From IMG/VR virus record IMGVR_UViG_3300029360_000019: a stretch of DNA of 43,197 nt, one strand, 5' to 3'. Shown piece by piece: positions 13,855-37,469 of the stretch (positions within the stretch are counted from its first letter, which is position 1; every line of letters begins with the position of its first letter). Both the position numbers and the translations under genes were made by a program. The notes beneath the pieces are model-generated. The model saw only the letters and a program-made list of their open reading frames with translations. It ran no database searches and was not told where the DNA came from. This stretch comes from a virus.

Positions 13855-13907
13855 CACAAAACAAAAAAGAGCCAACCGACTACAAAACAACATAGTCAGT
13901 TGGCTCT
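13855..13907 (-). terminator. Intrinsic terminator ending the antirepressor cassette, inside the late gene block
   Basis: Stem 13868-13876 / 13899-13907 plus an inner 4 bp. On the minus strand it is followed by TTTTTTGTTTTG. Confidence 0.7.
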
Positions 13908-13968
13908 TCGTGCCACTTCCGCGCGCCCAATTGCGCTGCGGGAATGTTATTCAGTTTGGGTTATTATG

Positions 13969-14709
13969 TCATGCCACGCCCAGGAACAGCAAGCGAAATG
14001 TTTCTCTTCCCTTCGGCGTGATAAGCGTCTGTGCACCGCTCCAATTCGTCTTTTCATTCACCGATTCCTTGACTTCAAACAAGCCATCGTTCTTGTGCTC
14101 ATACGGCAACAGTTTGCCCTTCTTGTCGCGGTAAATATATTTCTTTTCCAGCAGGAAAGAAACAAACTTCTTGGGCGGCACATCCAGTGCCTTTGCGGTC
14201 TCCCGGAAGTTCATCAGCGTGTTCCGCTCCACAAGCTGGTCGAAATAATCAGCTTTCGGAAGCATGATCTGATTTTCAACCGTCAGCGCGGAGATACGGG
14301 CGTCACGCTCGGCAAGCGTTTTCTGCGCCATCAGCAGCGCCGATGCCATCAGTTCCTGCGGGGTCATGTTCTCCTGCCCGTTGATGTACCCGCCGTGCTT
14401 GCGGATGCTGGGGATAACATCGCTCGTTACCCATCGTTTGAATTTCCGCGCCGTCGGCAGCTTAGAGCCAAGAACAAGCGCATAAAGGCCGCTTTCGTTG
14501 ATGATAATCATTTCCTGCTGCCCGGAGGGGGTGTCCATTTTAGCTACCCCCCTATCTTCCGCGTCAACTCTTTCTCTTGCTGCCTTTGTTGCGTCCTTAT
14601 ACCCCAGCGCAGCCGCAACATCCTTGCCGACAAACCACGGCGCACCGTCGCACTCCATTGTGCGAATGTTCCCAAATTCGGGATTATTAAAAATCATCAG
14701 TTCGTTCAT
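13969..14709 (-). CDS. Antirepressor (Bro-N domain plus KilAC/ANT-type C-terminal domain)
   Basis: N-terminal FNNPEFGNIRTMECDGAPWFVGKDVAAALGY...ESGLYALVLGSKLPTARKFKRWVTSDVIPSIRKHG is the Bro-N signature. The C-terminal half resembles the phage antirepressor C-domain. Confidence 0.85.
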   Translation of the reverse strand: MNELMIFNNPEFGNIRTMECDGAPWFVGKDVAAALGYKDATKAARERVDAEDRGVAKMDTPSGQQEMIIINESGLYALVLGSKLPTARKFKRWVTSDVIPSIRKHGGYINGQENMTPQELMASALLMAQKTLAERDARISALTVENQIMLPKADYFDQLVERNTLMNFRETAKALDVPPKKFVSFLLEKKYIYRDKKGKLLPYEHKNDGLFEVKESVNEKTNWSGAQTLITPKGRETFRLLFLGVA

Positions 14710-14948
14710 GCCATGTCCTCCTTCTTCACCGGGCGCATTTTGACCTCAAGTTCAAAGCAGCCCTCTTTTCCACAGAAAATATTCTTCACGATGTAGTCCC
14801 CAAACACTTCGACCATAACATCGTCATAGTCGGGTGCGCCGTTATGGAAAAGCGAATATGCGTTTCCGTTCACGGCAACATCAACTTCTTTGGGGTTGTT
14901 AATAAGCGTGCAGGCTTCTCTAACGGTTAGCATGGTAAAAATCTCCAT
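14706..14948 (-). CDS. Hypothetical protein of the antirepressor cassette
   Basis: 80-codon ORF whose stop overlaps the antirepressor start. The start codon is uncertain (14948 or 14933). Confidence 0.5.
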   Translation of the reverse strand: MEIFTMLTVREACTLINNPKEVDVAVNGNAYSLFHNGAPDYDDVMVEVFGDYIVKNIFCGKEGCFELEVKMRPVKKEDMA

Positions 14949-14961
14949 TTCTCTTGATTTT

Positions 14962-15004
14962 CACCGAAGAGGAGGTTATAATAGATTTAACCTCTGCTTC
15001 GGTG
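14962..15004 (-). promoter_or_regulatory. Long imperfect hairpin between the RHH gene and the next ORF
   Basis: CACCGAAG...AGGTTA paired with TAACCT...CTTCGGTG (8+6 bp around a 3-nt internal mismatch). No U tract follows. Confidence 0.4.
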
Positions 15005-15049
15005 GTGGTGAATTAGGGTGTTGGTGTGGTTTGTGAGGCCGCCAACGCC

Positions 15050-15220
15050 TTAATTTTTTGCCAAAAGCAGATGAACGCCCCGCCTAATTGCCTCTGTTTG
15101 GGTAATCCCGTGTTCTCGACAATAGGAAATAAGTTTTTCGTGCGTTTCCTTATCAAATCGGACTTTAATATTTATGTCCTTCGGGTTTTCTGACTTTGGC
15201 CGTCCTGTCCTCGGAGACAT
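15050..15220 (-). CDS. Ribbon-helix-helix (CopG/Arc-like) DNA-binding protein
   Basis: Start set at ATG 15220 (AAAGAGGTGA upstream). INIKVRFDKETHEKLISYCREHGITQTEAIRRGVHLLL fits a beta-strand/helix/helix RHH layout. Confidence 0.7.
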   Translation of the reverse strand: MSPRTGRPKSENPKDINIKVRFDKETHEKLISYCREHGITQTEAIRRGVHLLLAKN

Positions 15221-15236
15221 TTTTTCACCTCTTTTC

Positions 15237-15281
15237 GTGTTCCGATAAATCAAATATAATTCACGGAACACAAAAAGTCAA
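15237..15281 (-). promoter_or_regulatory. Promoter with embedded operator for the RHH/antirepressor cassette
   Basis: Minus strand TTGACT (15281-15276), 17-nt spacer, TATATT (15258-15253). A perfect 8-bp inverted repeat GTGTTCCG/CGGAACAC (15271-15264 and 15244-15237) brackets the -10. Confidence 0.65.
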
Positions 15282-15294
15282 GAGATTTTTGAAA

Positions 15295-15423
15295 TTATTT
15301 TTTCAGCTCTTCCGCCTTGATGATCTGCGCTTTGACGCTGCCATCCTTCATGCCCTTTAGCTGTACCCGCAGGCCGTTTTTTAGTGCCTGTTCAATGGCG
15401 GCTTTTAGCTTGTCATCAATCAT
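15295..15423 (-). CDS. Small hypothetical protein (42 aa)
   Basis: ATG 15423 lies 2 nt inside the end of 15416..15625; reading frame MIDDKLKAAIEQALKNG... Below the ORF-track cutoff and translated by hand. Confidence 0.4.
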   Translation of the reverse strand: MIDDKLKAAIEQALKNGLRVQLKGMKDGSVKAQIIKAEELKK

Positions 15424-15625
15424 CCAGCACCTCAATGCTTTCGATTTCTTCCGGATAAAAAACATTGATTTCTCCGCTATCCGCTTCTACTACCATGTTA
15501 TCTTGGTCATCGTTGGATTCGAGTGCATCTAATACAGCAATTACCTTTCCCTCAAACGATTTCCCCGTTGCTGTCAAAATTTTTACACGGGGAAGTCGAT
15601 TCGCATAATCCCAAATGTTTACCAT
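15416..15625 (-). CDS. Small acidic protein; immunity candidate for the MuF C-terminal domain
   Basis: 69 codons starting immediately after the MuF stop. Acidic (many D/E) and AT-rich like the MuF 3-prime end. Confidence 0.55.
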   Translation of the reverse strand: MVNIWDYANRLPRVKILTATGKSFEGKVIAVLDALESNDDQDNMVVEADSGEINVFYPEEIESIEVLDD

Positions 15626-17269
15626 TTATTTATTCTCCTTCGGCTCTGTCGGAACTACATGAGTGCCTTTTTTTGAATAGTAAATACCTGCTCGATTTGT
15701 TTTGTGATAAGCATTATTTTTATAATAACGGCCTATCGTCGCATCTGCATTTGCAAACTCTACAATTTTAAGCGCTCCATTTTTTTGGTTTTGAATAATG
15801 ACCGCCCCCGTTCCCGAGCTGCTGTCTACAAACTCTTGCGCCTCTTGCATTGTGATTGTCATCACGCTTTGCGGAGTTTTTCCATTTGAGATTCTTTGCG
15901 CCTTATATCTTTCAAACTCCATTGTTCCTTCAATGTGTCGAGCTTGTACCTGTGGCCGGATTACTGTGGAAATCTCCCCGCTTGCAATTTTTTCTTTTAG
16001 TATAGCAATATTTTTTTCGTTTTGCAACGCCGCTTGTTCTGCTTCCGATTGGCGCTTTGCTTTTAATGCTTGCGCCGCCGCCTCGCTTTTTTCGTCGCCG
16101 TAAAGCACTTTTAGTCTCTCTCTCTGCTCCGGCAGCCCCGCCGCCTTGCTAAACTCCTTGTATTTGGCATTTAAACGCCGCAGCTTAATGTTTGCGGTGG
16201 TGGCGTCGCCGGTAAGCCCTGCGGCCTCATATGCGGTTTTAAGCCGCTTTTGCTTGCGTATGGTGCGCTCTATGCGGCGCTGCATCTGCGTGGCCTCATA
16301 TGCAGTGTATTTCTTGCCGTCGTACTCGCAGCCAAGTCCGTCATCAATGTGCTGTAATTGCTCGTCTGTATAGGTGCGCTCCGACACGCCCTCCACCCAG
16401 GGATAGCGCCTATGGCGGCAGTTTGCGCCCTCCAGCCCGTCCACAGCGCCCAGTCCGCAAGCATCGTATATGCTTGGGTAAATATCGCCGGTGCGTATGC
16501 TGTAAACCTTGCCCTGCCACTCCTTATGCGATGACCACGGGGACAGGCCGGGTACATCACGCGCCCCGGCGTGGGCGGACACCTCATAATACGGGGTTTC
16601 TAAGTATTCCGCCGATTGCTCGGTATATTTGGCGCAAAGCTGGGAAACGCCCGTCATTACCGCCCTGCGGGCCGCTACATCGATAGAATCATGGTGGCCG
16701 CTCTCATAGTCAACCACCTTTAAGCCGCCGTCTGCAAGCTGCTTTACCGCCATCTTGATAGCCTGACTATAGTTGATCGCGCCGCTCTGCACCTGCATCG
16801 CCGCATTGTCAAGCGCCCATTGGTAAGCTTTGGCTGGGGGCAGCATCGTGCGCCCGTTGTCCACCAAAAAGCCCATCGACCGGGTTATGTTGCGCAAGTC
16901 CCGTTTGGTCTGCTGGTATATGGCCCAGGTGTCCTCGATGCTTACCAGCGTTTCCGGCTGAGTGATATGTGCAAGGTCAATGACGTTGGTGTAATACTGC
17001 TGATTGCGTTCCACAACATCATCAAGCAGCTTGTTTAATTTCTGCTCACTGATGCCGGTTGCTTTTTGTATGGCCTTTTTAATCTCTTTAAGGTCACTGC
17101 CATGCGCCCGCAGCGCCTTAATGTCCTGCACCGTGACCTCGTTCAGCTCGTCCGCAGCTCTTAGCCGGGAGCAGATTTCATCCAGCAGCGTGATTTCAAG
17201 CGCCCGGAACAGCTCTGCCAGTTCTTCCGGCAGCGCGTCAAGAACTTCCGGCTGAAACGGATATTTCAT
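15626..17269 (-). CDS. Head morphogenesis protein (SPP1 gp7 / Mu F family) with extra C-terminal toxin-like domain
   Basis: 547 codons after the portal block. NCRHRRYPW region typical of MuF. A coiled-coil linker is followed by about 115 aa containing QARHIEGT...IYYSKKGTHVVP. Confidence 0.85.
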   Translation of the reverse strand: MKYPFQPEVLDALPEELAELFRALEITLLDEICSRLRAADELNEVTVQDIKALRAHGSDLKEIKKAIQKATGISEQKLNKLLDDVVERNQQYYTNVIDLAHITQPETLVSIEDTWAIYQQTKRDLRNITRSMGFLVDNGRTMLPPAKAYQWALDNAAMQVQSGAINYSQAIKMAVKQLADGGLKVVDYESGHHDSIDVAARRAVMTGVSQLCAKYTEQSAEYLETPYYEVSAHAGARDVPGLSPWSSHKEWQGKVYSIRTGDIYPSIYDACGLGAVDGLEGANCRHRRYPWVEGVSERTYTDEQLQHIDDGLGCEYDGKKYTAYEATQMQRRIERTIRKQKRLKTAYEAAGLTGDATTANIKLRRLNAKYKEFSKAAGLPEQRERLKVLYGDEKSEAAAQALKAKRQSEAEQAALQNEKNIAILKEKIASGEISTVIRPQVQARHIEGTMEFERYKAQRISNGKTPQSVMTITMQEAQEFVDSSSGTGAVIIQNQKNGALKIVEFANADATIGRYYKNNAYHKTNRAGIYYSKKGTHVVPTEPKENK

Positions 17270-19771: not shown

Positions 19772-21009
19772 GCAATAACTCCCATTCTGCGGCTGACAGG
19801 CTCCAACGCATACCGAGTCGCGTCAATCAGGTGGTTGTTCGCGTCTGGGTATCCGCTGATAATGTCACCGTCTTTGTTTCGTTCGTATTCGTACCCCACA
19901 AATTCATCATAAGCATGTGGGGTTCTCTTCCTGTCTATTACGATTGTGCGCCGCTGCAGAAATTTCATACCATATTCCACGGACCCGGGGCCCTTTACCG
20001 CCTCAAGTGCCGGCAGTCCCATCGCGCGGAAGTCTGCCACGCTCTTAGGCTCTGCACTATCGCAAATAGTTCGCACGTTTTTATATCCTCGCTGCTTGAT
20101 TATTGTCGCGCTTTGCTCATTGGATAGTTTGTTTTGGTAAATTTCATCCAGCAAGTAAATGGTTTCGCGCGCCCGGTCGTAGTGCAGCCGGATAAAAGCA
20201 AACGGATCGGGAAACCACCCAAAGTCAACGCCCTGGTAAATCTTATCGAATCTTTTAAATTCGTCGTCCGTGATTTCCCGCAGTTCCAGCTTGTCAAACA
20301 CATTGCCACCCGTACCCACAGGAATGCCTAAATACTCATGCTGGTACGCTCTCTCGTCCGTGGCCTTGAGATGTTCCGCCTCTGCCAAAAACTGCTCACC
20401 CAGCCACTCCCGTGGGGCTTGCAAGTACGTTGATTTGTGGCACAGCCTGTCGGCGCGTTCCTCCAGGCTGTCCTTGTTCGCCCAGTTATCGCGGCTTATC
20501 GGCGGGTTGTAGCTTTCAAAGTTCCAATACTTCGAGCCACCGCGCATGGTCGATTGCAAAATCGTTCGTATCTCGGCACGACCGGCAAACTGGTCTTTTT
20601 CCTCAAAGTGCGTCACGGCGATATAGCCAAACGGCACCTTGATAGACTTTATCTTCATGGGATCGTCAGCACCCCGAAACATGATTTTCTGCCCGGTAGG
20701 CTTGTAGATCAGCTCCATCGGGGAAACCTTTGCTTCCCAATACGCCGCCATGCCCAGTTCACCGATTGCCCAGATATACTGCGCGTACACGCTGTCACGA
20801 ATGGTATTTGCCACCTTACGCAGCACCAGCGCGTGTGTCCCCGGATTGTTTATCAGCAGCAGGGGGACGAGCACAGACACCGTGGAGGATTTCAGTGAGC
20901 CGCGCCCACCGCTGAAATCGTAGTGCGTGTGACCGTGGTGGAACACGTCGTGGGCCACATCGTAAAAAGCCGAGCCGATTTTTTCTGACAAGAGAATATC
21001 AGACATCAA
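19768..21009 (-). CDS. terL: Terminase large subunit (PBSX/SPP1-type)
   Basis: 413 codons. N-terminal ATPase region (GGRGSLKS Walker-A-like) and C-terminal nuclease region. Follows terS. Confidence 0.9.
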   Translation of the reverse strand: MMSDILLSEKIGSAFYDVAHDVFHHGHTHYDFSGGRGSLKSSTVSVLVPLLLINNPGTHALVLRKVANTIRDSVYAQYIWAIGELGMAAYWEAKVSPMELIYKPTGQKIMFRGADDPMKIKSIKVPFGYIAVTHFEEKDQFAGRAEIRTILQSTMRGGSKYWNFESYNPPISRDNWANKDSLEERADRLCHKSTYLQAPREWLGEQFLAEAEHLKATDERAYQHEYLGIPVGTGGNVFDKLELREITDDEFKRFDKIYQGVDFGWFPDPFAFIRLHYDRARETIYLLDEIYQNKLSNEQSATIIKQRGYKNVRTICDSAEPKSVADFRAMGLPALEAVKGPGSVEYGMKFLQRRTIVIDRKRTPHAYDEFVGYEYERNKDGDIISGYPDANNHLIDATRYALEPVSRRMGVIA

Positions 21010-21412
21010 TAACCACCTTGACGGAATCCGTGCTAATTTTTGTCTCGTTCACTTCACGCCACCCAAAATTGCAGCCAAGCGAGAATTTCGCGCCGTTCGC
21101 GCCGTCTTTGTCGTAGAGCCGAGATTCGGCATATTCTTCGCAGCGGGACTTTGCGCGCGTAACCGTGTCCGCAAACTCTGGCCTTGCTTGATAGTCCAGC
21201 AGCGCTTGTCTCCCTGTGAATCCAAGCGCCAATGCAAGCCCTGTGATTGTCGGGGGCTTTGCATTGATGATAATCGGCATGCCGTACTTATCGCGCACAG
21301 CGCAGCCGTCATCTCCGATAAACGGTTCGCCTTCGCACTTTTTGAAGTAAGCGTCAATCGCCTTTTGCATCGCACTTACGCTTTTCCATTTTCTCGGTGC
21401 TCCGCCAGCCAT
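20999..21412 (-). CDS. terS: Terminase small subunit
   Basis: Start set at ATG 21412 behind AAAGGAAGTGA. PTITGLALALGF HTH-like segment. Overlaps the terL start. Confidence 0.7.
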   Translation of the reverse strand: MAGGAPRKWKSVSAMQKAIDAYFKKCEGEPFIGDDGCAVRDKYGMPIIINAKPPTITGLALALGFTGRQALLDYQARPEFADTVTRAKSRCEEYAESRLYDKDGANGAKFSLGCNFGWREVNETKISTDSVKVVIDV

Positions 21413-21540
21413 ACGCTCACTTCCTTTCGTTTTGCTACCAGCCCCCACCCCTTGGCTACAGTAACAGTCTTTCCCCTCCCATGCGGGCCTCTTGGGCCTC
21501 TCAAACATGGGCTACACACTATTTTTTTTGATATTTTTTA

Positions 21541-21569
21541 TTGACAGAATGCATCGGATAGTATATGAT
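21541..21569 (+). promoter_or_regulatory. Strong sigma-70-type promoter pointing away from terS
   Basis: TTGACA (21541-21546), 17-nt spacer, TATGAT (21564-21569), preceded by an A/T tract at 21521-21540. Confidence 0.55.
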
Positions 21570-21575
21570 TGACTT

Positions 21576-21692
21576 GTCGGATGCAGGAGGCGCTTGCATC
21601 GGCGGGAAATTCGATCCTATTTCCTGTGGATTGAAATACTAAAAACAGTATGCTGGAGAAAAAGAGCGGAGCTTCCGCTCTTTTCCTTTTTA
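21576..21692 (+). ncRNA. Candidate about 115-nt small RNA, antisense to any transcript entering terS
   Basis: Bounded by the promoter above and the intrinsic terminator at 21657-21692. Only a 17-codon ORF without an RBS lies inside. Contains hairpin GGATGCA...TGCATC. Confidence 0.35.
21657..21692. terminator. Bidirectional intrinsic terminator
   Basis: 9-bp stem 21661-21669 / 21675-21683, flanked by an A run on one side and a T run on the other. Confidence 0.75.
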
Positions 21693-21696
21693 TTGT

Positions 21697-21956
21697 GCGG
21701 CATTGCAGTCCTGCCCTGCTTTAGCGCTTCAGGGAGAGTCCCCGTCACTCGCTGTGGTCTCCACTTACGGGGCACCTATGCCGCATATAGCAACGCAACA
21801 GCCCGCAGGATAACCCCGCAGGCTGTCATGATCGCGTTGTGCCGGTATGCCCGTTTCCGAGTCCGCTTGCGCGGTGCGCCCAATACCGGCGGCGCATAAG
21901 ATGGAGGAAACGGGTTGAGTGGAAAGACGGGTGGATGACTATGCCTTATCATCCAC
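21697..21956 (-). ncRNA. Candidate structured RNA / late-operon leader with pseudoknot
   Basis: No credible ORF. A series of 6-9-bp GC-rich helices, one GNRA (GCAA) hairpin and one loop-to-downstream 8-bp complementarity. One G-U pair fits only the minus strand. Confidence 0.4.
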
Positions 21957-21963
21957 TGTACCT

Positions 21964-21972
21964 ATTGTAGCA
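21964..21972 (-). promoter_or_regulatory. Extended -10 promoter candidate (TGCTACAAT)
   Basis: Reverse complement of 21964-21972 reads TGCTACAAT, 6 nt after the stop of 21978..22442. Confidence 0.4.
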
Positions 21973-21977
21973 CATCA

Positions 21978-22442
21978 TTAGGTGGAATTTGTGCCAACTT
22001 TCTCTGCAAAACCACAATATATGGCTATGTCAAGCAAAAACTGCTCTTTTCTCCTGCTGAATGTCCGCTCGCTTATCCCCGGCACGATAATCTTGTTGCG
22101 GGAAAACTTATGCTTTCCCTGACAGTTGCGCATAATGCCCTGTGCAAGCTGCTTGCGGATGCTCTCACTCTCCAAATCCCGTCCACATCGATCTATGGCG
22201 TATTCTACAGCCCGCATTTTCTTGGTTTCCGGCCAGTTTTCTATGGCGACAAGCTGCTCCGCCTTGCTTTCGGACGGCCTACCAATGCCTGGAGAGCGGG
22301 ACATTCCCTCCGTTGCACTGCTTCCGCCGCTCAGTATCTCGCTCCGCGCATCGTTGTATGCCTGTACTCTCCGGGGATAACCTCTGACATAGGCGATGCA
22401 CTCAAGCCGCACATCATACGGCAGTTTTTGTTTTCGACTCAT
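21978..22442 (-). CDS. Late-gene regulator candidate (RinA/ArpU-position protein with sigma region-4-like HTH)
   Basis: Last early gene before terS. C-terminal GISERTFSRRKEQFLLDIAIYCGF resembles a sigma-70 region-4-type HTH. Confidence 0.5.
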   Translation of the reverse strand: MSRKQKLPYDVRLECIAYVRGYPRRVQAYNDARSEILSGGSSATEGMSRSPGIGRPSESKAEQLVAIENWPETKKMRAVEYAIDRCGRDLESESIRKQLAQGIMRNCQGKHKFSRNKIIVPGISERTFSRRKEQFLLDIAIYCGFAEKVGTNST

Positions 22443-22740: not shown

Positions 22741-22898
22741 TTCCGTCCCTCCTTGATCTTGTCCATCAGAAGCAGCCGCACAGCTTGGCAGAGTGCATAT
22801 ACAAGGCTATTCTGCCAAATGCTCCGTCGCTCCTTAATGCGGCACATACCGTTCTCGATTTCCTCCAAGGCTTCCAGCATTGCGTCTTTATTCGCCAT
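22737..22898 (-). CDS. Small hypothetical protein
   Basis: Start set at ATG 22898 behind GGAGGG. Confidence 0.45.
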   Translation of the reverse strand: MANKDAMLEALEEIENGMCRIKERRSIWQNSLVYALCQAVRLLLMDKIKEGRK

Positions 22899-23232
22899 CG
22901 GCTGCCCTCCACGGAGTGTCCACGCATTCAGGATGGACAATCTCCATCTCGATCGCCCACAGTAGGTTCCACGCTGCAGCTACAAGGTGCGGCTCGTCTA
23001 CATAGCCCGCCAAATATTTTGCTGCGTGGCGAATGGCGGAATCTAACAGACTGTGGGTTGGGATTCCTTTATCGACATTATGCTCCCCGTATTTCAAAGC
23101 ACCCGCCTCGCAGTGCTTCGACACTTCCATGATAGCCAACCAAGGGAGCAAATCCATCCGTCCCTTGCCCGTTTGCATATCCCGGAGCGCTCCGCTTGGA
23201 AACTTGGTTCTTTCTCCGCTGTCTTTAATCAT
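22888..23232 (-). CDS. DUF5664-type dATP/dGTP pyrophosphohydrolase-like protein
   Basis: KDSGERTKFPSGALRDMQTGKGRMDLLPW...KYGEHN...DSAIRHAAKYLAG..DEPHLVAAAWNLLWA matches the conserved pattern of that family. Start at 23232 behind GGAAGGA. Confidence 0.7.
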   Translation of the reverse strand: MIKDSGERTKFPSGALRDMQTGKGRMDLLPWLAIMEVSKHCEAGALKYGEHNVDKGIPTHSLLDSAIRHAAKYLAGYVDEPHLVAAAWNLLWAIEMEIVHPECVDTPWRAADGE

Positions 23233-23491
23233 AGTCCTTCCGTTCTCCATAGCTGCAATAATCGTCAGGTTTAGGTGTATCTTCTGGGATAATCTGGATG
23301 GTCTGAAAGAGCCAGCAGCCAAACCAATCCCCGTCGTTATTATCCGCAAACCACTTGCAGTCCTTACACCGTACCACCGGCACAGCGTCCACGGTTTGCA
23401 TTGCTTTTGCCCAGCAATACGCTTGCCTGTCGCATTTATCTCTGCAAACGCAATCTGCGCACACTTCTGCTTCGATGTCAATCAGCCGCAT
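23225..23491 (-). CDS. Cys-rich small protein, PVVRCK paralogue
   Basis: Start ATG 23491 behind GGAGGGAGG. Motifs DAVPVVRCKDCKW and DDYCSYGERKD. Confidence 0.55.
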   Translation of the reverse strand: MRLIDIEAEVCADCVCRDKCDRQAYCWAKAMQTVDAVPVVRCKDCKWFADNNDGDWFGCWLFQTIQIIPEDTPKPDDYCSYGERKDYD

Positions 23492-27589: not shown

Positions 27590-28660
27590 TCATTCCTCCC
27601 CAAACCATTTTTTCGTCACGGCAATGGGAAACTCTTCGATCTCGCTTGCCCAGCGCGCCGTACCCTTGCCGTTGTGCCGCTCAAACACCAGCGGAAAGCC
27701 GCCGATGCCATCAAACAGGCTGCCCATCGTAACAGGGCGAAGATATTGTGCGCTGATCCGCTTTGCCAAAAAGTCCCAGAAGGGCAATGCGATGGAGTTG
27801 CCCAGCGCCTTATACCGGGGGCTGTCCGCATCCTTGTGGCGCTTGCCTTTGCTGTCCATCCACTCGCCAATGTCTGTCCAGCCGTTCGGGTAGCCCTGCA
27901 GCCGTTCGCACTCCATCGGGGTCAGGCGGCGCACCACCATGTTCTGCACGGGGTATGTCTCCGCGTCTTCCCGGTATGCGCAGGCAGCCTTTGCCCGCAG
28001 TGCGTGTGCCACCTCCGGTGTTGCCCCGCACACCAGCATATCGTTATAAGCATCCTGCCCGTTATAGCTCCCAGCATGGGCACCGGGAGAAAGCGTTCCC
28101 GTTACGGTTTGATACGTCAGCGGCACTTGATTGCCGCCTGTTCCCATACGGGCTTGCAAACTCGGAGCGATCTCTCCGCAGTCCCGAATGACATCGCAAG
28201 CGTGCGACATATCCAGCGCCACAAACGTCTGGCAGTGCATACCGACCTCCGCAGCAAGCGCCACTGCCTTATCCCCCACGTTGCGAACCTCTTCGCGCTG
28301 ATTTTGCGCAAAAGCGATGACCGCTGGCTGGTGTCCATGCTTCTGTGCTCTCAGCGTGCCGGAAACATCATGGCTCACGCCCATCACATTCCCGCCTTGA
28401 TCGTTCAGGCACATCACCGCCGGTTTATTCCACCCACACTCTGCGTTCAACGTGGGCGATTGCTCTTCGGCGTATCCGATGCTCCGGGCCTGTTCGCTGT
28501 TCCCCAGCTTAAACCCGGCGCAAACCGCCGGTCGGTCGATGCCGTTTCCCTGCAAGCATGAAATCGTCTGGTCGTTGCCGGTGCCCAGCGTCCCGCTCTT
28601 GTCCTCCTGCACTAAAGTGCCTTTTCCTCCTCCGTCACAGACTCCTGACCCGGACTGCAT
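27590..28660 (-). CDS. Cytosine-5 DNA methyltransferase, distal part: TRD, motifs IX and X, then motifs I and II at the C-terminus
   Basis: RRLTPMECERLQGYP (IX), YKALGNSIALP (X), GSLFDGIGGF (I), WASEIEEFP (II). The frame is open upstream to 29074, but that stretch overlaps the other part in the +1 frame. ATG 28660 is the first in-frame ATG near the junction. Confidence 0.7.
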   Translation of the reverse strand: MQSGSGVCDGGGKGTLVQEDKSGTLGTGNDQTISCLQGNGIDRPAVCAGFKLGNSEQARSIGYAEEQSPTLNAECGWNKPAVMCLNDQGGNVMGVSHDVSGTLRAQKHGHQPAVIAFAQNQREEVRNVGDKAVALAAEVGMHCQTFVALDMSHACDVIRDCGEIAPSLQARMGTGGNQVPLTYQTVTGTLSPGAHAGSYNGQDAYNDMLVCGATPEVAHALRAKAACAYREDAETYPVQNMVVRRLTPMECERLQGYPNGWTDIGEWMDSKGKRHKDADSPRYKALGNSIALPFWDFLAKRISAQYLRPVTMGSLFDGIGGFPLVFERHNGKGTARWASEIEEFPIAVTKKWFGEE

Positions 28661-29252
28661 AAGAAGCACCGCTTTCAGCGTTTCCGGCAAGTCTTTCCCA
28701 CGCCGTTCCGCTCTCCGCAGGATGCCTTGACACGCTTTTGCGCTCAAAGAGTATTTCTCCTGCGGTGTCGCCTCCAAAATCTGCGACAACCGAGATCCGA
28801 CGGCGGCGTTGGGGGACTCCCCAGTATTGCGCGTCATGCACTCGCCAAGCCACGCTCCATCGTCCTCCCACTTCATCGTGGTAGCCACCCCAAGTTGGCC
28901 ATCCTTTTTCAGGTACTTCAATATCGGGGGCTTCCGGCTCTGCGATGCGGATGATCTCTTCAAGGACTGCCGCGAAGTCTCGCCCTTTGTTGCTGCTGAA
29001 TGCTCCGGGCACATTTTCCCAGACCATAAACCGAGGTCGGACCATGTCACCTGTCCGTCCGCTCTTTCTGTCACGCTCTCTCATCTCCTTTACGATGCGG
29101 ATATGCTCCATGAACAATCCGCTCCTTGCACCGGCCAATCCGGCTCGTTTTCCTGCAATGCTCAAATCCTGACACGGCGATCCGCCCGTGATAACATCCA
29201 CGGCTTCGATCTCTGCACCGTTGATTTTCGTAATATCGCCGAGGTGCTTCAT
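28635..29252 (-). CDS. Cytosine-5 DNA methyltransferase, proximal part: motifs III to VIII only
   Basis: MKHLGDI (III), GGSPCQDLSIAG (IV), ENVPG (VI), QYWGVPQRRRR (VIII). GGAGGAACGGAG RBS. No motif I upstream. Confidence 0.8.
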   Translation of the reverse strand: MKHLGDITKINGAEIEAVDVITGGSPCQDLSIAGKRAGLAGARSGLFMEHIRIVKEMRERDRKSGRTGDMVRPRFMVWENVPGAFSSNKGRDFAAVLEEIIRIAEPEAPDIEVPEKGWPTWGGYHDEVGGRWSVAWRVHDAQYWGVPQRRRRISVVADFGGDTAGEILFERKSVSRHPAESGTAWERLAGNAESGASYAVRVRSL

Positions 29253-33688: not shown

Positions 33689-33968
33689 ATTTAAGGAGGT
33701 GGACTTTTTGACCAACCTTTTGACTTTGCCCGTTCCAGACCGAAGTACCGGCGCAATGCGATAGGGTCAGGCTGCCCCAGAACTGCCAAAGTGAGCGGTG
33801 CGTCACAGAAACGGAAGTCCGTTTTTCGTCAGACTGGCATTTCCGAGCCGCAAGAATGACGGCTTGGCCATCGGCTAAGGATTGCCGGTGAACAGTCTGT
33901 GCAGCGCACTCTGGTAACAAATCTGGGAGGAAAACGCCCGCAAACGGACTGCGGGTGTTTTTCTTTTC
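33675..33968 (+). ncRNA. Candidate about 290-nt non-coding transcription unit of the immunity region (contains an 18-codon TTG ORF behind AAGGAGGT)
   Basis: Promoter upstream and intrinsic terminator at 33934-33968. Three-way junction closed by CAGACTG/CAGTCTG (33830-36 / 33893-99). No long ORF with coding character. Confidence 0.4.
33934..33968 (+). terminator. Intrinsic terminator
   Basis: ACGCCCGCA / TGCGGGTGT stem (one G-T pair) followed by TTTTTCTTTTC. Confidence 0.7.
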
Positions 33969-36467: not shown

Positions 36468-37469
36468 ATGGGAAAAGCAATGAGGAGGGCCAACGGAACC
36501 GGGACAGTGTATAAGCTCGCCGGGCGCCGACGCAGGCCCTGGGTGGCTGCAAAGCAAAAAATCATTATAGGATATTACCCCACCAAAAAAGATGCTATAG
36601 CGGCGCTGGAACGTCTTGCAGGCAAGGATTTAACGGAGCGGTACAACATGACCTTTGCCCAGGTGTTTGACGCTTGGAAAGAGGAGCATTACAAAAAAAT
36701 AGGGCCAAACGGTATAGAAGGCTATGACGGCGCATTTAAAATTTTTGCGCCGCTGCACGACCGGAAGTTCCGGGACTTAAAAACGGCGGATTTCCAGGGC
36801 GTACTGGATGCCCATATGCATAAATCCCATAGCACTGTGTCCAAGTATAAGCAACTCATAACGCAGATGTCCACATGGGCCATGCGCGAGGAGATCATCA
36901 CAACAAATTTTGCAAAATTCGTCCAGCTCCCCGAAAACACAAAAAAAGAAAAAGAAACATTTACCGATGCTGAAATAAGCAAGCTGGAAGCGGACGGCAG
37001 CGACACCGCAAAAATTATCCTCATGCTGATTTACACAGGAATGCGCATAGGGGAATTGTTTTCCCTACCGGCTAAAGATTATCACAAAGATTATGTGGTC
37101 GGCGGTGAAAAGACGGAGGCTGGGCGAAACAGGATCATCCCAATCCGCCCCGAAGGGATCCCATACTTTGCCTATTTTGCAAATAAGGCTACCGGCCCAC
37201 TGCTCATATCCGGCTATGCTGGGGAAAAAATCCCAGCAAACTTCCGCCGCCGGGATTATTACCCGCTTTTGGAAAAATTAAAAATCCAGCGCAAAACGCC
37301 GCACTCCACCCGGCACACCTATGCAAGCTGGGCGAGAAAAGCGGGGATTGCTCCGGAGACGCTACAGAGGATCCTCGGCCACGCCAACTACTCCACTACC
37401 GCAAATATATACGTCCATACGTCAGCGGAGGAATTGGTGCAGGCCGTTAAAAAGGCGAAAATTTGTTAG
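36468..37469 (+). CDS. int: Tyrosine integrase
   Basis: RIGELFSL, HSTRHTYAS and LGHANYSTTANIYVH give the R..HxxR..Y catalytic pattern. Adjacent to the tRNA fragment. Confidence 0.9.
   Translation: MGKAMRRANGTGTVYKLAGRRRRPWVAAKQKIIIGYYPTKKDAIAALERLAGKDLTERYNMTFAQVFDAWKEEHYKKIGPNGIEGYDGAFKIFAPLHDRKFRDLKTADFQGVLDAHMHKSHSTVSKYKQLITQMSTWAMREEIITTNFAKFVQLPENTKKEKETFTDAEISKLEADGSDTAKIILMLIYTGMRIGELFSLPAKDYHKDYVVGGEKTEAGRNRIIPIRPEGIPYFAYFANKATGPLLISGYAGEKIPANFRRRDYYPLLEKLKIQRKTPHSTRHTYASWARKAGIAPETLQRILGHANYSTTANIYVHTSAEELVQAVKKAKIC

Follow-up and report, generated by a model that had tools for sequence, protein, structure and literature searches.

Phage transfer RNA (tRNA) clusters, such as the tRNA region of T4, also contain co-transcribed stable tRNA-like RNAs, the species 1 and 2 RNAs. 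In lambda, the Q gene is associated with the PR' promoter, the 6S RNA and the tR' terminator, and in Shiga toxin (Stx) phages such as 933W tRNA genes are located downstream of PR'. The locus described here shares features with both systems. It is a 565-nt non-coding gap (21977-21413) in the IMG/VR virus record IMGVR_UViG_3300029360_000019, the whole 43,197-nt stretch of which was analysed and is called the window below. The gap is flanked by an open reading frame (ORF) for a protein of 154 amino acids (aa) (21978-22442, minus strand) and by the terS gene (20999-21412, minus strand; GP3_package). With moderate confidence, we regard the interval 21697-21972 as the 5' part of a minus-strand non-coding unit, a tRNA-operon-like leader of the late operon from which a cloverleaf RNA, element B, would be released by processing.

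As in a T4-type cluster, tRNAs and non-decoding RNAs processed like tRNAs would be combined in one unit, and a terminal stem is followed by CCA in most relatives; the processing is a prediction at this locus. Unlike such a cluster, the array forms the leader of a packaging operon in temperate siphoviruses of gut Clostridia and is preceded by a conserved pseudoknot domain, and its cloverleaf has neither an anticodon loop nor a T-loop consensus. As in lambda and 933W, the late operon is headed by a regulator gene, a promoter and a short non-coding RNA, in this order, tRNAs and morons are present in the leader, and terminators lie within the late unit. In contrast to lambda, no conserved terminator follows the RNA, no Q-like protein was found, and the terminator that is present comes from a convergent small-RNA cassette.

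A survey of IMG/VR reported candidate structured RNAs, among them tRNA-like candidates in human-gut phages and highly expressed candidates of ~64-86 nt in phages of Lachnospiraceae, Blautia and Ruminococcus (Fremin et al. 2023; PMC10690425). Element B, the pseudoknot domain and the plus-strand RNA described below may be among these candidates; no described equivalent of the locus was found in the literature. The cabRNA of staphylococcal phages is also a structured phage RNA from the terminase region. It is transcribed within the terS/terL genes and defined by activating the cyclase of the cyclic oligonucleotide-based antiphage signalling system (CBASS) (PMC10686824), and it is unrelated in sequence and structure to the elements found here.

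The mosaic array and element B

The relatives used for comparison were ~160 IMG/VR and ENA loci encoding homologues of the 154-aa protein, all of them unannotated. In all homologues examined, distant ones included, a non-coding array follows the gene on its 3' side. This stretch measures 443-1984 nt in the relatives and is a mosaic of shared blocks: block A, from the promoter to hairpin M3; block B, which is element B (window 21786-21693); and block C (window 21518-21421). Most relatives carry extra cassettes between A and B. True tRNA genes are among them, with Rfam scores of 40-47 bits against the 29-bit threshold and ARAGORN assignments to Trp, Gln, Met, Thr and others, and further cassettes are tRNA-shaped genes with aberrant anticodon arms. 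The cassette junctions are uniform: a cassette starts with G directly after UAUAU and ends with a 6-8-bp stem followed by ACCA or ACAA (stem-A-CCA/CAA). Since the relatives hold genuine tRNA genes between these same junctions, the region can be read as a tRNA-operon-like leader of the late operon. As judged from the arrays, tRNAs, tRNA-like RNAs and reverse-oriented cassettes are swapped between phages at this start of the late operon, which is a hot spot of insertion.

Element B (21693-21786, minus strand) is a four-arm cloverleaf. Its terminal 7-bp stem (21784-21778/21703-21697) holds the hairpin CCCC-GUAA-GUGG (21772-21761), a central helix (21753-21750/21726-21723) enclosing a further hairpin (21744-21730), and the arm GCAG-GGCAGGA-CUGC (21719-21705) with 4 bp and a 7-nt loop. 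A 'discriminator' A (21696) and CAA follow the stem, the latter being CCA in most relatives. The first-pass annotation, which was made from the letters of the window, had placed a three-way junction here; its closing stem is indeed present and strongly covarying, but the junction is four-way. In 35 distinct copies the cloverleaf model reached 98.9% pairing, with both sides changed in 5 pairs, and none of 500 shuffles attained the observed value; in 61 distinct copies it was 99.2% paired with seven doubly changed pairs and five helices supported. Pair 1-72 of the terminal stem occurs as GC (21), GU (20) and AU (14). The consensus of the first hairpin is CCCC-GNRA-GGGG, and hairpin tips are exchanged for sequences that are unrelated and still paired (CGCCGG-CGUU-CCGGCG, GCC-GAAUGAU-GGC or a longer insert). 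The unpaired nucleotides of the junctions and loops are almost invariant in B, as they are in the pseudoknot domain M2 described below, and the variation is found in stems and hairpin tips. The covariance model detected one copy per locus, including one in the window at 117.7 bits. The minimum free energy structure, which was also that of the earlier annotation (long-range UGCCC/GGGCA plus GNGG-AGA-CCNC), was rejected: only disruptive changes were seen in the two helices that set it apart, and its small hairpin was paired in 75%.

B resembles tRNA in its four-arm cloverleaf with a 7-bp acceptor-type stem showing GC/GU/AU covariation. The central arm, however, is a bipartite stem with a variable tip of 3-7 nt and no anticodon loop, the T-like loop GGCAGGA lacks the T-loop consensus, and the junctions measure 5, 7, 3 and 1 nt. 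ARAGORN made no call on B even at relaxed thresholds and detected no tRNA in the window, and no Rfam tRNA match was obtained at E <= 10. B as a true tRNA is thus ruled out by its loops, its junction lengths, ARAGORN and Rfam. The 3' end is NCCA in 75 distinct loci (~75% of relatives), with A, G or U as the discriminator, and ACAA in 23, the window included; the window copy thus has CAA in place of CCA, and it also has a C.U mismatch in one arm.

B is widespread, occurring in at least 119 IMG/VR contigs by a strict pattern. Its mean identity is 96%, and it is still 93% identical where the 154-aa protein is 55% identical. Block A was missing from 83 of the 120 B loci checked, and most of these 83 had no detectable 154-aa gene. 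There, the core of block C, the element C', follows 3' of B, often within 16 nt, and the first late gene comes next.

Block C (21421-21518, minus strand) consists of a hairpin and a G-tract-rich element that abuts the terS ribosome-binding site, the core C' being located at 21480-21431. C' was found in 252 loci (133 distinct), always ~10-15 nt ahead of the first late gene's ribosome-binding site. At least six families are represented by that gene, e.g. GP3-type terS, Terminase_2-like terS and ParB-methyltransferase. B and C' are separated by 16 to >900 nt or by the terminator cassette. The G-tracts GGG, GGGG, GGGG and GGGGG of C' are conserved but are separated by single nucleotides that are not (A/C/U and U/C), as would be expected of an RNA G-quadruplex or of a polypurine element that binds ribosomes or stabilizes the RNA. 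A hairpin of variable sequence lies on their 5' side. A T-box-like pairing of the ACCA end with UGGU in C' was tested for covariation and rejected; there was none, the discriminator varying as A/G/U while UGGU stayed constant.

Several variants of the cassettes were observed in individual relatives. The genes at L082:4137-4216, L012:2696-2788, L045:3704-3783 and similar loci occupy the slot between M3 and B and are tRNA-shaped, with normal acceptor, D and T arms and with the anticodon arm replaced by a long tetraloop stem or an enlarged loop; ARAGORN gave them odd anticodon positions or a 4-nt 'anticodon'. At a distant 154-aa homologue in an Oscillospiraceae metagenome-assembled genome (MAG), L309:1295-1345 is a tRNA-like minihelix made up of an acceptor-like stem and the canonical T arm GCUGG-UUCAAUU-CCAGC, with no D or anticodon arm, and a GNRA hairpin and a tRNA-Met lie 3' of it. 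The 1.9-kb arrays, e.g. L024:4150-5145 (minus strand), contain a reverse-oriented cassette within the leader. A TTGACA-17-TATTAT promoter of its own drives this cassette, in which two small ORFs (68 and 106 aa) are accompanied by the plus-strand small-RNA gene and by a bidirectional terminator. A sub-threshold match to the DUF3800-VIII RNA (36 bits, threshold 40.2 bits) was seen at L026:4224-4287, just upstream of block C.

Block A, its promoter and the 154-aa gene

The 565-bp gap between the 154-aa ORF and terS had been noted from the outset as lacking a credible ORF, and this was confirmed. Reading it as coding sequence was rejected, the indels between cassettes not being multiples of three and spurious ORFs overlapping tRNA-like sequence. 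All the helices listed at first were found at their coordinates in the window sequence, and most of them are kept in more than 150 related gut-phage contigs. The minus strand folds with -138.7 kcal/mol (z = -5.6) and the plus strand with z = -3.6, and the z-scores of sub-segments do not distinguish the strands. The pairing exceeds chance: a perfect helix of at least 9 bp arose in 1.3% of dinucleotide shuffles of 21840-21957, and the native segment holds several of 8-9 bp. Because thermodynamic z-scores fail to separate the strands, the strand assignment rests on the substitution patterns: helices are kept by G.U and compensatory changes that would be A.C mismatches on the other strand. This is in agreement with the minus-strand polarity proposed in the first-pass annotation. 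Compensatory or wobble changes were found for M1, M3, the pseudoknot and the closing stem of B, whereas the proposed 9-bp helix is not conserved.

Block A runs from the promoter through M1, a hairpin, and a linker to the pseudoknot domain M2 and the long hairpin M3. The extended -10 promoter-like element TGCTACAAT (21964-21972, minus strand), which the first-pass annotation had predicted, lies 6 nt past the stop codon of the 154-aa gene. It is kept in 79 distinct relatives and is otherwise TGGTAAAAT, which preserves the TGnTAnAAT pattern. The variant TGCTAAAAT is found 3' of a 55%-identical homologue of the 154-aa gene and TGTCATAAT 3' of the distant homologue in the Oscillospiraceae MAG. From the position of this element, transcription is likely to start near 21957. 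The minus-strand, conserved and pseudoknotted RNA behind a conserved extended -10 comes close to the 'independent non-coding RNA' that had been offered as an alternative to a lambda-type layout.

Pairing in M1, M2 and M3 was evaluated in an alignment (A3) of 79 distinct upstream-block sequences. The 5'-terminal hairpin M1 (GUGGAUGA / UCAUCCAC; 21931-21956, minus strand) has the predicted 8-bp stem 21956-21949/21938-21931. It was detected by both fold and alignment, 92.6% of its cells being paired; 19 changes from G-C to G.U were counted, and the stem survives an insertion variant. A single-stranded, pyrimidine-rich linker containing CCUCC follows (21897-21930, minus strand), which exists in three sequence types, all CU-rich. 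It includes the 5' strand (21914-21906) of the 9-bp helix 21914-21906/21858-21850 proposed in the earlier annotation. This helix is perfect in the window but only there: 59.9% of its cells are paired in the alignment, and all other sequences sharing its 3' strand carry CACUUUUCC or another CU-rich string as the 5' strand. The 3' strand is better read as the local hairpin CYCG-GNRA-CGGG, with the loop GAAA, GGAA, GAGA or GUAA (GNRA in 18/18 variants).

The pseudoknot domain M2 (21841-21896, minus strand) is formed by the stems S1 (21895-21891/21880-21876) and S2 (21890-21883/21848-21841). Its long loop holds two GNRA hairpins, CCGC-GCAA-GCGG (21874-21863) and CUCG-GAAA-CGGG (21861-21850), and ACAA lies directly 3' of the domain. 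The 6-bp hairpin 21896-21891/21880-21875, the hairpin at 21874-21863 and the pseudoknot pairing had all been recognized in the window. S1 was 100% and S2 99.4% paired, with one-sided, wobble-compatible changes only. Compensation was seen in a divergent clade of three loci with a 53-55% identical protein, in which S1 becomes GGCAC/GUGCC and S2 becomes GCCGGUAA/UUACCGGC; this lends the proposed pseudoknot compensatory, though thin, support. The same clade has one additional nucleotide between the 5' strands of S1 and S2, and CUC-GCAA-GAG or CCC-GUAA-GGG at the position of CYCG-GNRA-CGGG. In the main family, the zero-nucleotide first loop would force one or two junction pairs open. The domain as a whole is nearly invariant, and its flanks are variable.

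Viral tRNA-like structures of the turnip yellow mosaic virus (TYMV) type contain a pseudoknotted acceptor arm. M2 resembles such an arm in outline: the loop of a hairpin pairs with a downstream strand that is followed by A-CAA, and a stack of the 8-bp S2 upon the 5-bp S1 would be ~13 bp long, like the acceptor/T arm of a tRNA. The likeness is one of resemblance only. Unlike in TYMV, the pseudoknot is internal to a DNA-phage transcript and not at a genomic 3' end, and its long loop carries the two GNRA hairpins.

The long hairpin M3 (21791-21839, minus strand) was first described as a 17-bp bulged hairpin. It is present, and its inner 12 bp (21826-21815/21809-21798) are kept, being 99.4% paired with UA<->CG compensatory changes in 6 sequences and many GU/GC/AU switches, but the outer 6 bp (21839-21834/21796-21791) are limited to the window and one relative (L109). 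Its z-score is -5.1. Because most relatives contain two adjacent G.U pairs, its polarity is that of the minus strand. In the divergent clade its place is taken by an unrelated hairpin of 14 bp with UUUUUAU behind it.

The RNA elements of the locus are real, well delimited and widespread, the conserved folded RNA being common to hundreds of phages of the human gut, and they are absent from Rfam 15. In 21400-22100, no family matched at E <= 10 beyond chance level and none passed the curated thresholds. The window and 20 relatives were scanned at these thresholds with no relevant match; in the relatives only tRNA matches passed, and tRNA-Sec-like matches and one to DUF3800-VIII remained below threshold. 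ROOL, GOLLD, HEARO, phi29 pRNA, EAR, c4 and self-cleaving ribozymes gave no covariance-model match in the same interval, and since the Rfam scans gave no relevant match, assignments to ROOL, GOLLD, pRNA, ribozymes or riboswitches are unsupported.

The 154-aa gene (21978-22442, minus strand) is a candidate for a late-transcription factor gene, the promoter and the RNA array always lying on its 3' side. The protein belongs to no family in Pfam, PHROGs or NCBIfam and has no sequence match in PDB at E <= 10. In Pfam and PHROG scans its distant homologues matched only phrog_11237 (unknown function) and, marginally in one case, Phage_pRha; a search for more distant homologues with P0133 gave no match. 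The AlphaFold model (predicted local distance difference test score, pLDDT, 77.5) is helical with two lobes. Foldseek found nothing significant in PDB, the top weak matches being sigma-A chains, and the fold matches in a viral library were phage 'transcriptional regulator/activator', sigma-70 region 4 and DUF1492-domain proteins (E = 0.003-0.3 or weaker). A role as a late-transcription factor is plausible. No match to a Q-family antiterminator was obtained, and the weak fold matches were not to Q; a non-homologous functional analogue of Q is a possible role.

The terminator and the convergent small-RNA gene

The intrinsic terminator at 21657-21692 is bidirectional by its sequence, with an A-tract, an 11-bp stem, a 3-nt loop and U-tracts in either direction, and has the G+C-rich hairpin and U-tract of this class at 21692-21657. 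The first-pass annotation took it to be the end of the minus-strand RNA. The terminator is real, in both directions, but it is a separate module and not a conserved RNA end: in 116 distinct arrays, a sense-strand terminator was missing in 84, the module of the window was present in 22, and a different bidirectional terminator was found in 8. It is always linked to a plus-strand promoter module, the whole spanning 21704-21511 in the window and being highly conserved.

This module contains a convergent small-RNA gene (21541-21693, plus strand). Its promoter, TTGACA (21541-21546), 17 nt and TATGAT (21564-21569), matches the consensus at 11 of 12 positions, and the predicted RNA (~21576-21693, ~115 nt; z = -3.5) would comprise a 5' hairpin with the GGAGG-containing loop GGAGGCGCU, a second hairpin with the loop UCGAUCCU and the terminator. 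In 27 IMG/VR contigs there are homologous units, some of them behind two small reverse-oriented ORFs. Both promoter hexamers are kept in them with an unrelated spacer, as are the first hairpin (GUCGGAUGCAGGAGGCGCUUGCAUC) and the sequence CCGUGGAUUGAAA; the second hairpin is either lacking or retains its loop on another stem, and the terminator stem is different. In one hairpin, a C-G,G.U <-> U.G,G-C exchange pairs only on the plus strand. Because the homologous units share the promoter and hairpins and because this exchange pairs on the plus strand only, the terminator is best assigned to the convergent gene. It is a foreign module inserted between B and C/C' in a minority of phages, the window included.

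Small convergent or antisense phage RNAs that end at bidirectional terminators are exemplified by sar of P22 and oop of lambda. The plus-strand cassette is like them in that its ~115-nt RNA is preceded by a strong sigma-70 promoter, ends at a bidirectional terminator and lies antisense to an operon leader. It differs in that there is no homology and that the RNA gene of some relatives sits behind small reverse-oriented ORFs.

By its position, the terminator would also stop the minus-strand array RNA at ~21660, after ~300 nt, and no good sigma-70 promoter was found in the window on the minus strand between the terminator and terS. As the inserted terminator lies upstream, terS would need read-through, antitermination or an unrecognized promoter in block C. 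A late control similar to that of lambda is to be considered, in which a promoter behind the regulator gene makes a short RNA that stops at the terminator until the 154-aa protein or the RNA itself renders the polymerase terminator-resistant into terS. The put RNA of phage HK022 has such an effect on RNA polymerase. The strictly conserved order of gene, promoter and structured RNA would suit this explanation, as would the lack of a good sigma-70 promoter before terS, the additional bidirectional terminator in the arrays of eight relatives and the tolerance of reverse-oriented cargo within the leader; the long hairpin with UUUUUAU in the divergent clade looks terminator-like, and the presumed late unit is interrupted by strong terminators on the sense strand, one at 21692-21657 and one at 13909-13866. 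The latter, on the minus strand with a 19-bp stem, confirms the second terminator predicted in the late block. Given such terminators within the late unit, read-through or antitermination may occur, or transcription may start from internal promoters. Nevertheless, we consider the lambda-like explanation unlikely. The terminator 21692-21657 is missing in 84 of the 116 arrays and is part of the plus-strand cassette, behind the long hairpin the main family has a degenerate U-tract and the window has none, and the 154-aa protein has no detectable similarity to Q proteins. The terminator at 13909-13866 ends an antirepressor moron with a promoter-like site of its own, so that internal promoters could suffice, and B also occurs in phages lacking the 154-aa protein or block A. 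The proposed PR'/6S/tR' layout is thus unsupported.

Proposed processing of the leader and the remaining explanations

The tRNA-operon-like leader with a processed element B is the reading we prefer, and its course may be pictured as follows. Transcription would start near 21957, just after the sigma/activator-like 154-aa gene, and the RNA would comprise the 5' hairpin, the CU-rich linker, the H-type pseudoknot domain with its two GNRA hairpins, the long hairpin and the ~90-nt cloverleaf B. RNase P would cut on the 5' side of B at 21785/21784. The 3' end of a CAA-type B would be made by RNase Z cutting after 21696 and by the CCA-adding enzyme, and that of a CCA-type B by exonuclease trimming. 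B would thus be freed as a stable non-decoding tRNA mimic detached from the downstream late messenger RNA, which would begin with the conserved C' element.

Several points weigh against this reading. As no T-loop consensus or anticodon loop is present and the junctions are unlike those of tRNA, recognition of B by RNase P or RNase Z is not assured. The covariation in B amounts to a handful of events among sequences that are otherwise 96% identical, that in the pseudoknot depends on three sequences from one divergent clade, and recent horizontal exchange, instead of selection, could in part explain why B is so similar from phage to phage. Finally, as a strong sense-strand terminator lies between B and terS with no good sigma-70 promoter after it, the role of late-operon leader is unproven in the phage of the window.

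If B is excised and stable, it would be an abundant, previously uncharacterized tRNA mimic of temperate gut-Clostridia phages, appearing as the phage switches to particle production, and it would link phage late control to the host machinery of tRNA processing and tRNA sensing, which is now central to anti-phage defence. A wider proposal is that B represents a new class of CCA-tailed, anticodon-less tRNA mimic, made at the onset of late expression and acting in trans on a tRNA-binding host factor, with the pseudoknot domain as a second mimic having a TYMV-like acceptor arm. As a joint claim we regard this as tentative and rather doubtful. In that case B might, for example, lure away defence nucleases or sensors directed at tRNA, or it might compete for RNase P, RNase Z, the CCA-adding enzyme or EF-Tu, and the scope would be hundreds of human-gut Clostridia phages. 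The locus in any case provides three delimited RNA candidates, i.e. the pseudoknot domain, the cloverleaf and the convergent small RNA, together with an uncharacterized protein family whose gene always lies immediately upstream.

The near-invariant unpaired nucleotides of B and of the pseudoknot domain are typical of cores that bind a ligand or a protein, and B and C' stand directly upstream of the first late gene regardless of its identity. Both observations would also be expected of a cis-regulatory leader in which the pseudoknot, the cloverleaf or both form a riboswitch-like or protein-binding sensor that acts on the packaging genes via the long hairpin or C'. We find this distinctly unlikely, since B and C' are separable by 16 to >900 nt or by the terminator cassette and no conserved switching pairing was found, the ACCA/UGGU pairing having failed; moreover, both the CCA that is encoded behind a stem of 7 bp and the true tRNAs nearby suggest processing and not sensing.

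A decaying tRNA cluster, consisting of pseudo-tRNAs or recombination remnants with no function of their own, is very unlikely. Cassettes occur in many combinations in the region, which is a hot spot of recombination, the cassettes of several relatives are tRNA-like with aberrant anticodon arms, and the CAA end and C.U mismatch of the B copy in the window could be taken as signs of decay. B is, however, 96% identical on average with all arms kept by compensatory changes in at least 119 contigs, it is kept in phages whose neighbouring protein is only 53-55% identical, and the pseudoknot domain is nearly invariant amid variable flanks. A DNA-level packaging signal, in which the inverted repeats would be a pac site or another binding site for terminase or a further protein, is suggested by the location directly upstream of terS and is hardly credible, as the maintenance of helices by G.U-only and compensatory substitutions matters only for a single strand, B and C' precede GP3-type terS, Terminase_2-type terS, ParB-methyltransferase and other genes, and the distance to terS varies by kilobases; this contradicts the pac-site alternative of the first-pass annotation.

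The window genome is that of a temperate siphovirus-like phage, with an integrase gene (36468-37469, plus strand), CI-like helix-turn-helix genes and nearly all genes on the minus strand; terL and an SPP1-type portal gene are located 3' of terS. Judged by TerL, Blautia phage Montmirail (55%) is the nearest named phage, no close cultured relative being found, and parts of the locus are present in only two bacterial assemblies, a Clostridiales MAG and the Oscillospiraceae MAG. An antirepressor gene with Bro-N and ANT domains (13969-14709, minus strand) lies between the minor capsid and the scaffold/major capsid genes. Since it has its own promoter-like site upstream (15253-15281, minus strand) and the 19-bp-stem terminator downstream (13866-13909, minus strand), it looks like a moron amid head genes; a 917-nt gap (14710-15625) lies upstream of it. 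The minor capsid protein 2 gene (Phage_min_cap2; 15626-17269, minus strand) encodes a C-terminal Ntox50 toxin domain. In the early region just upstream of the locus, 22888-23481 (minus strand) encodes a dATP/dGTP diphosphohydrolase N-terminal domain, which hints at manipulation of the nucleotide pool or at DNA modification, and a C-5 cytosine methylase domain is encoded at 27590-29074. An FuFi-1 RNA (Rfam RF02986) was detected in the early/lysogeny region at 33749-33964 (plus strand), with 88.1 bits against the 59.6-bit threshold.

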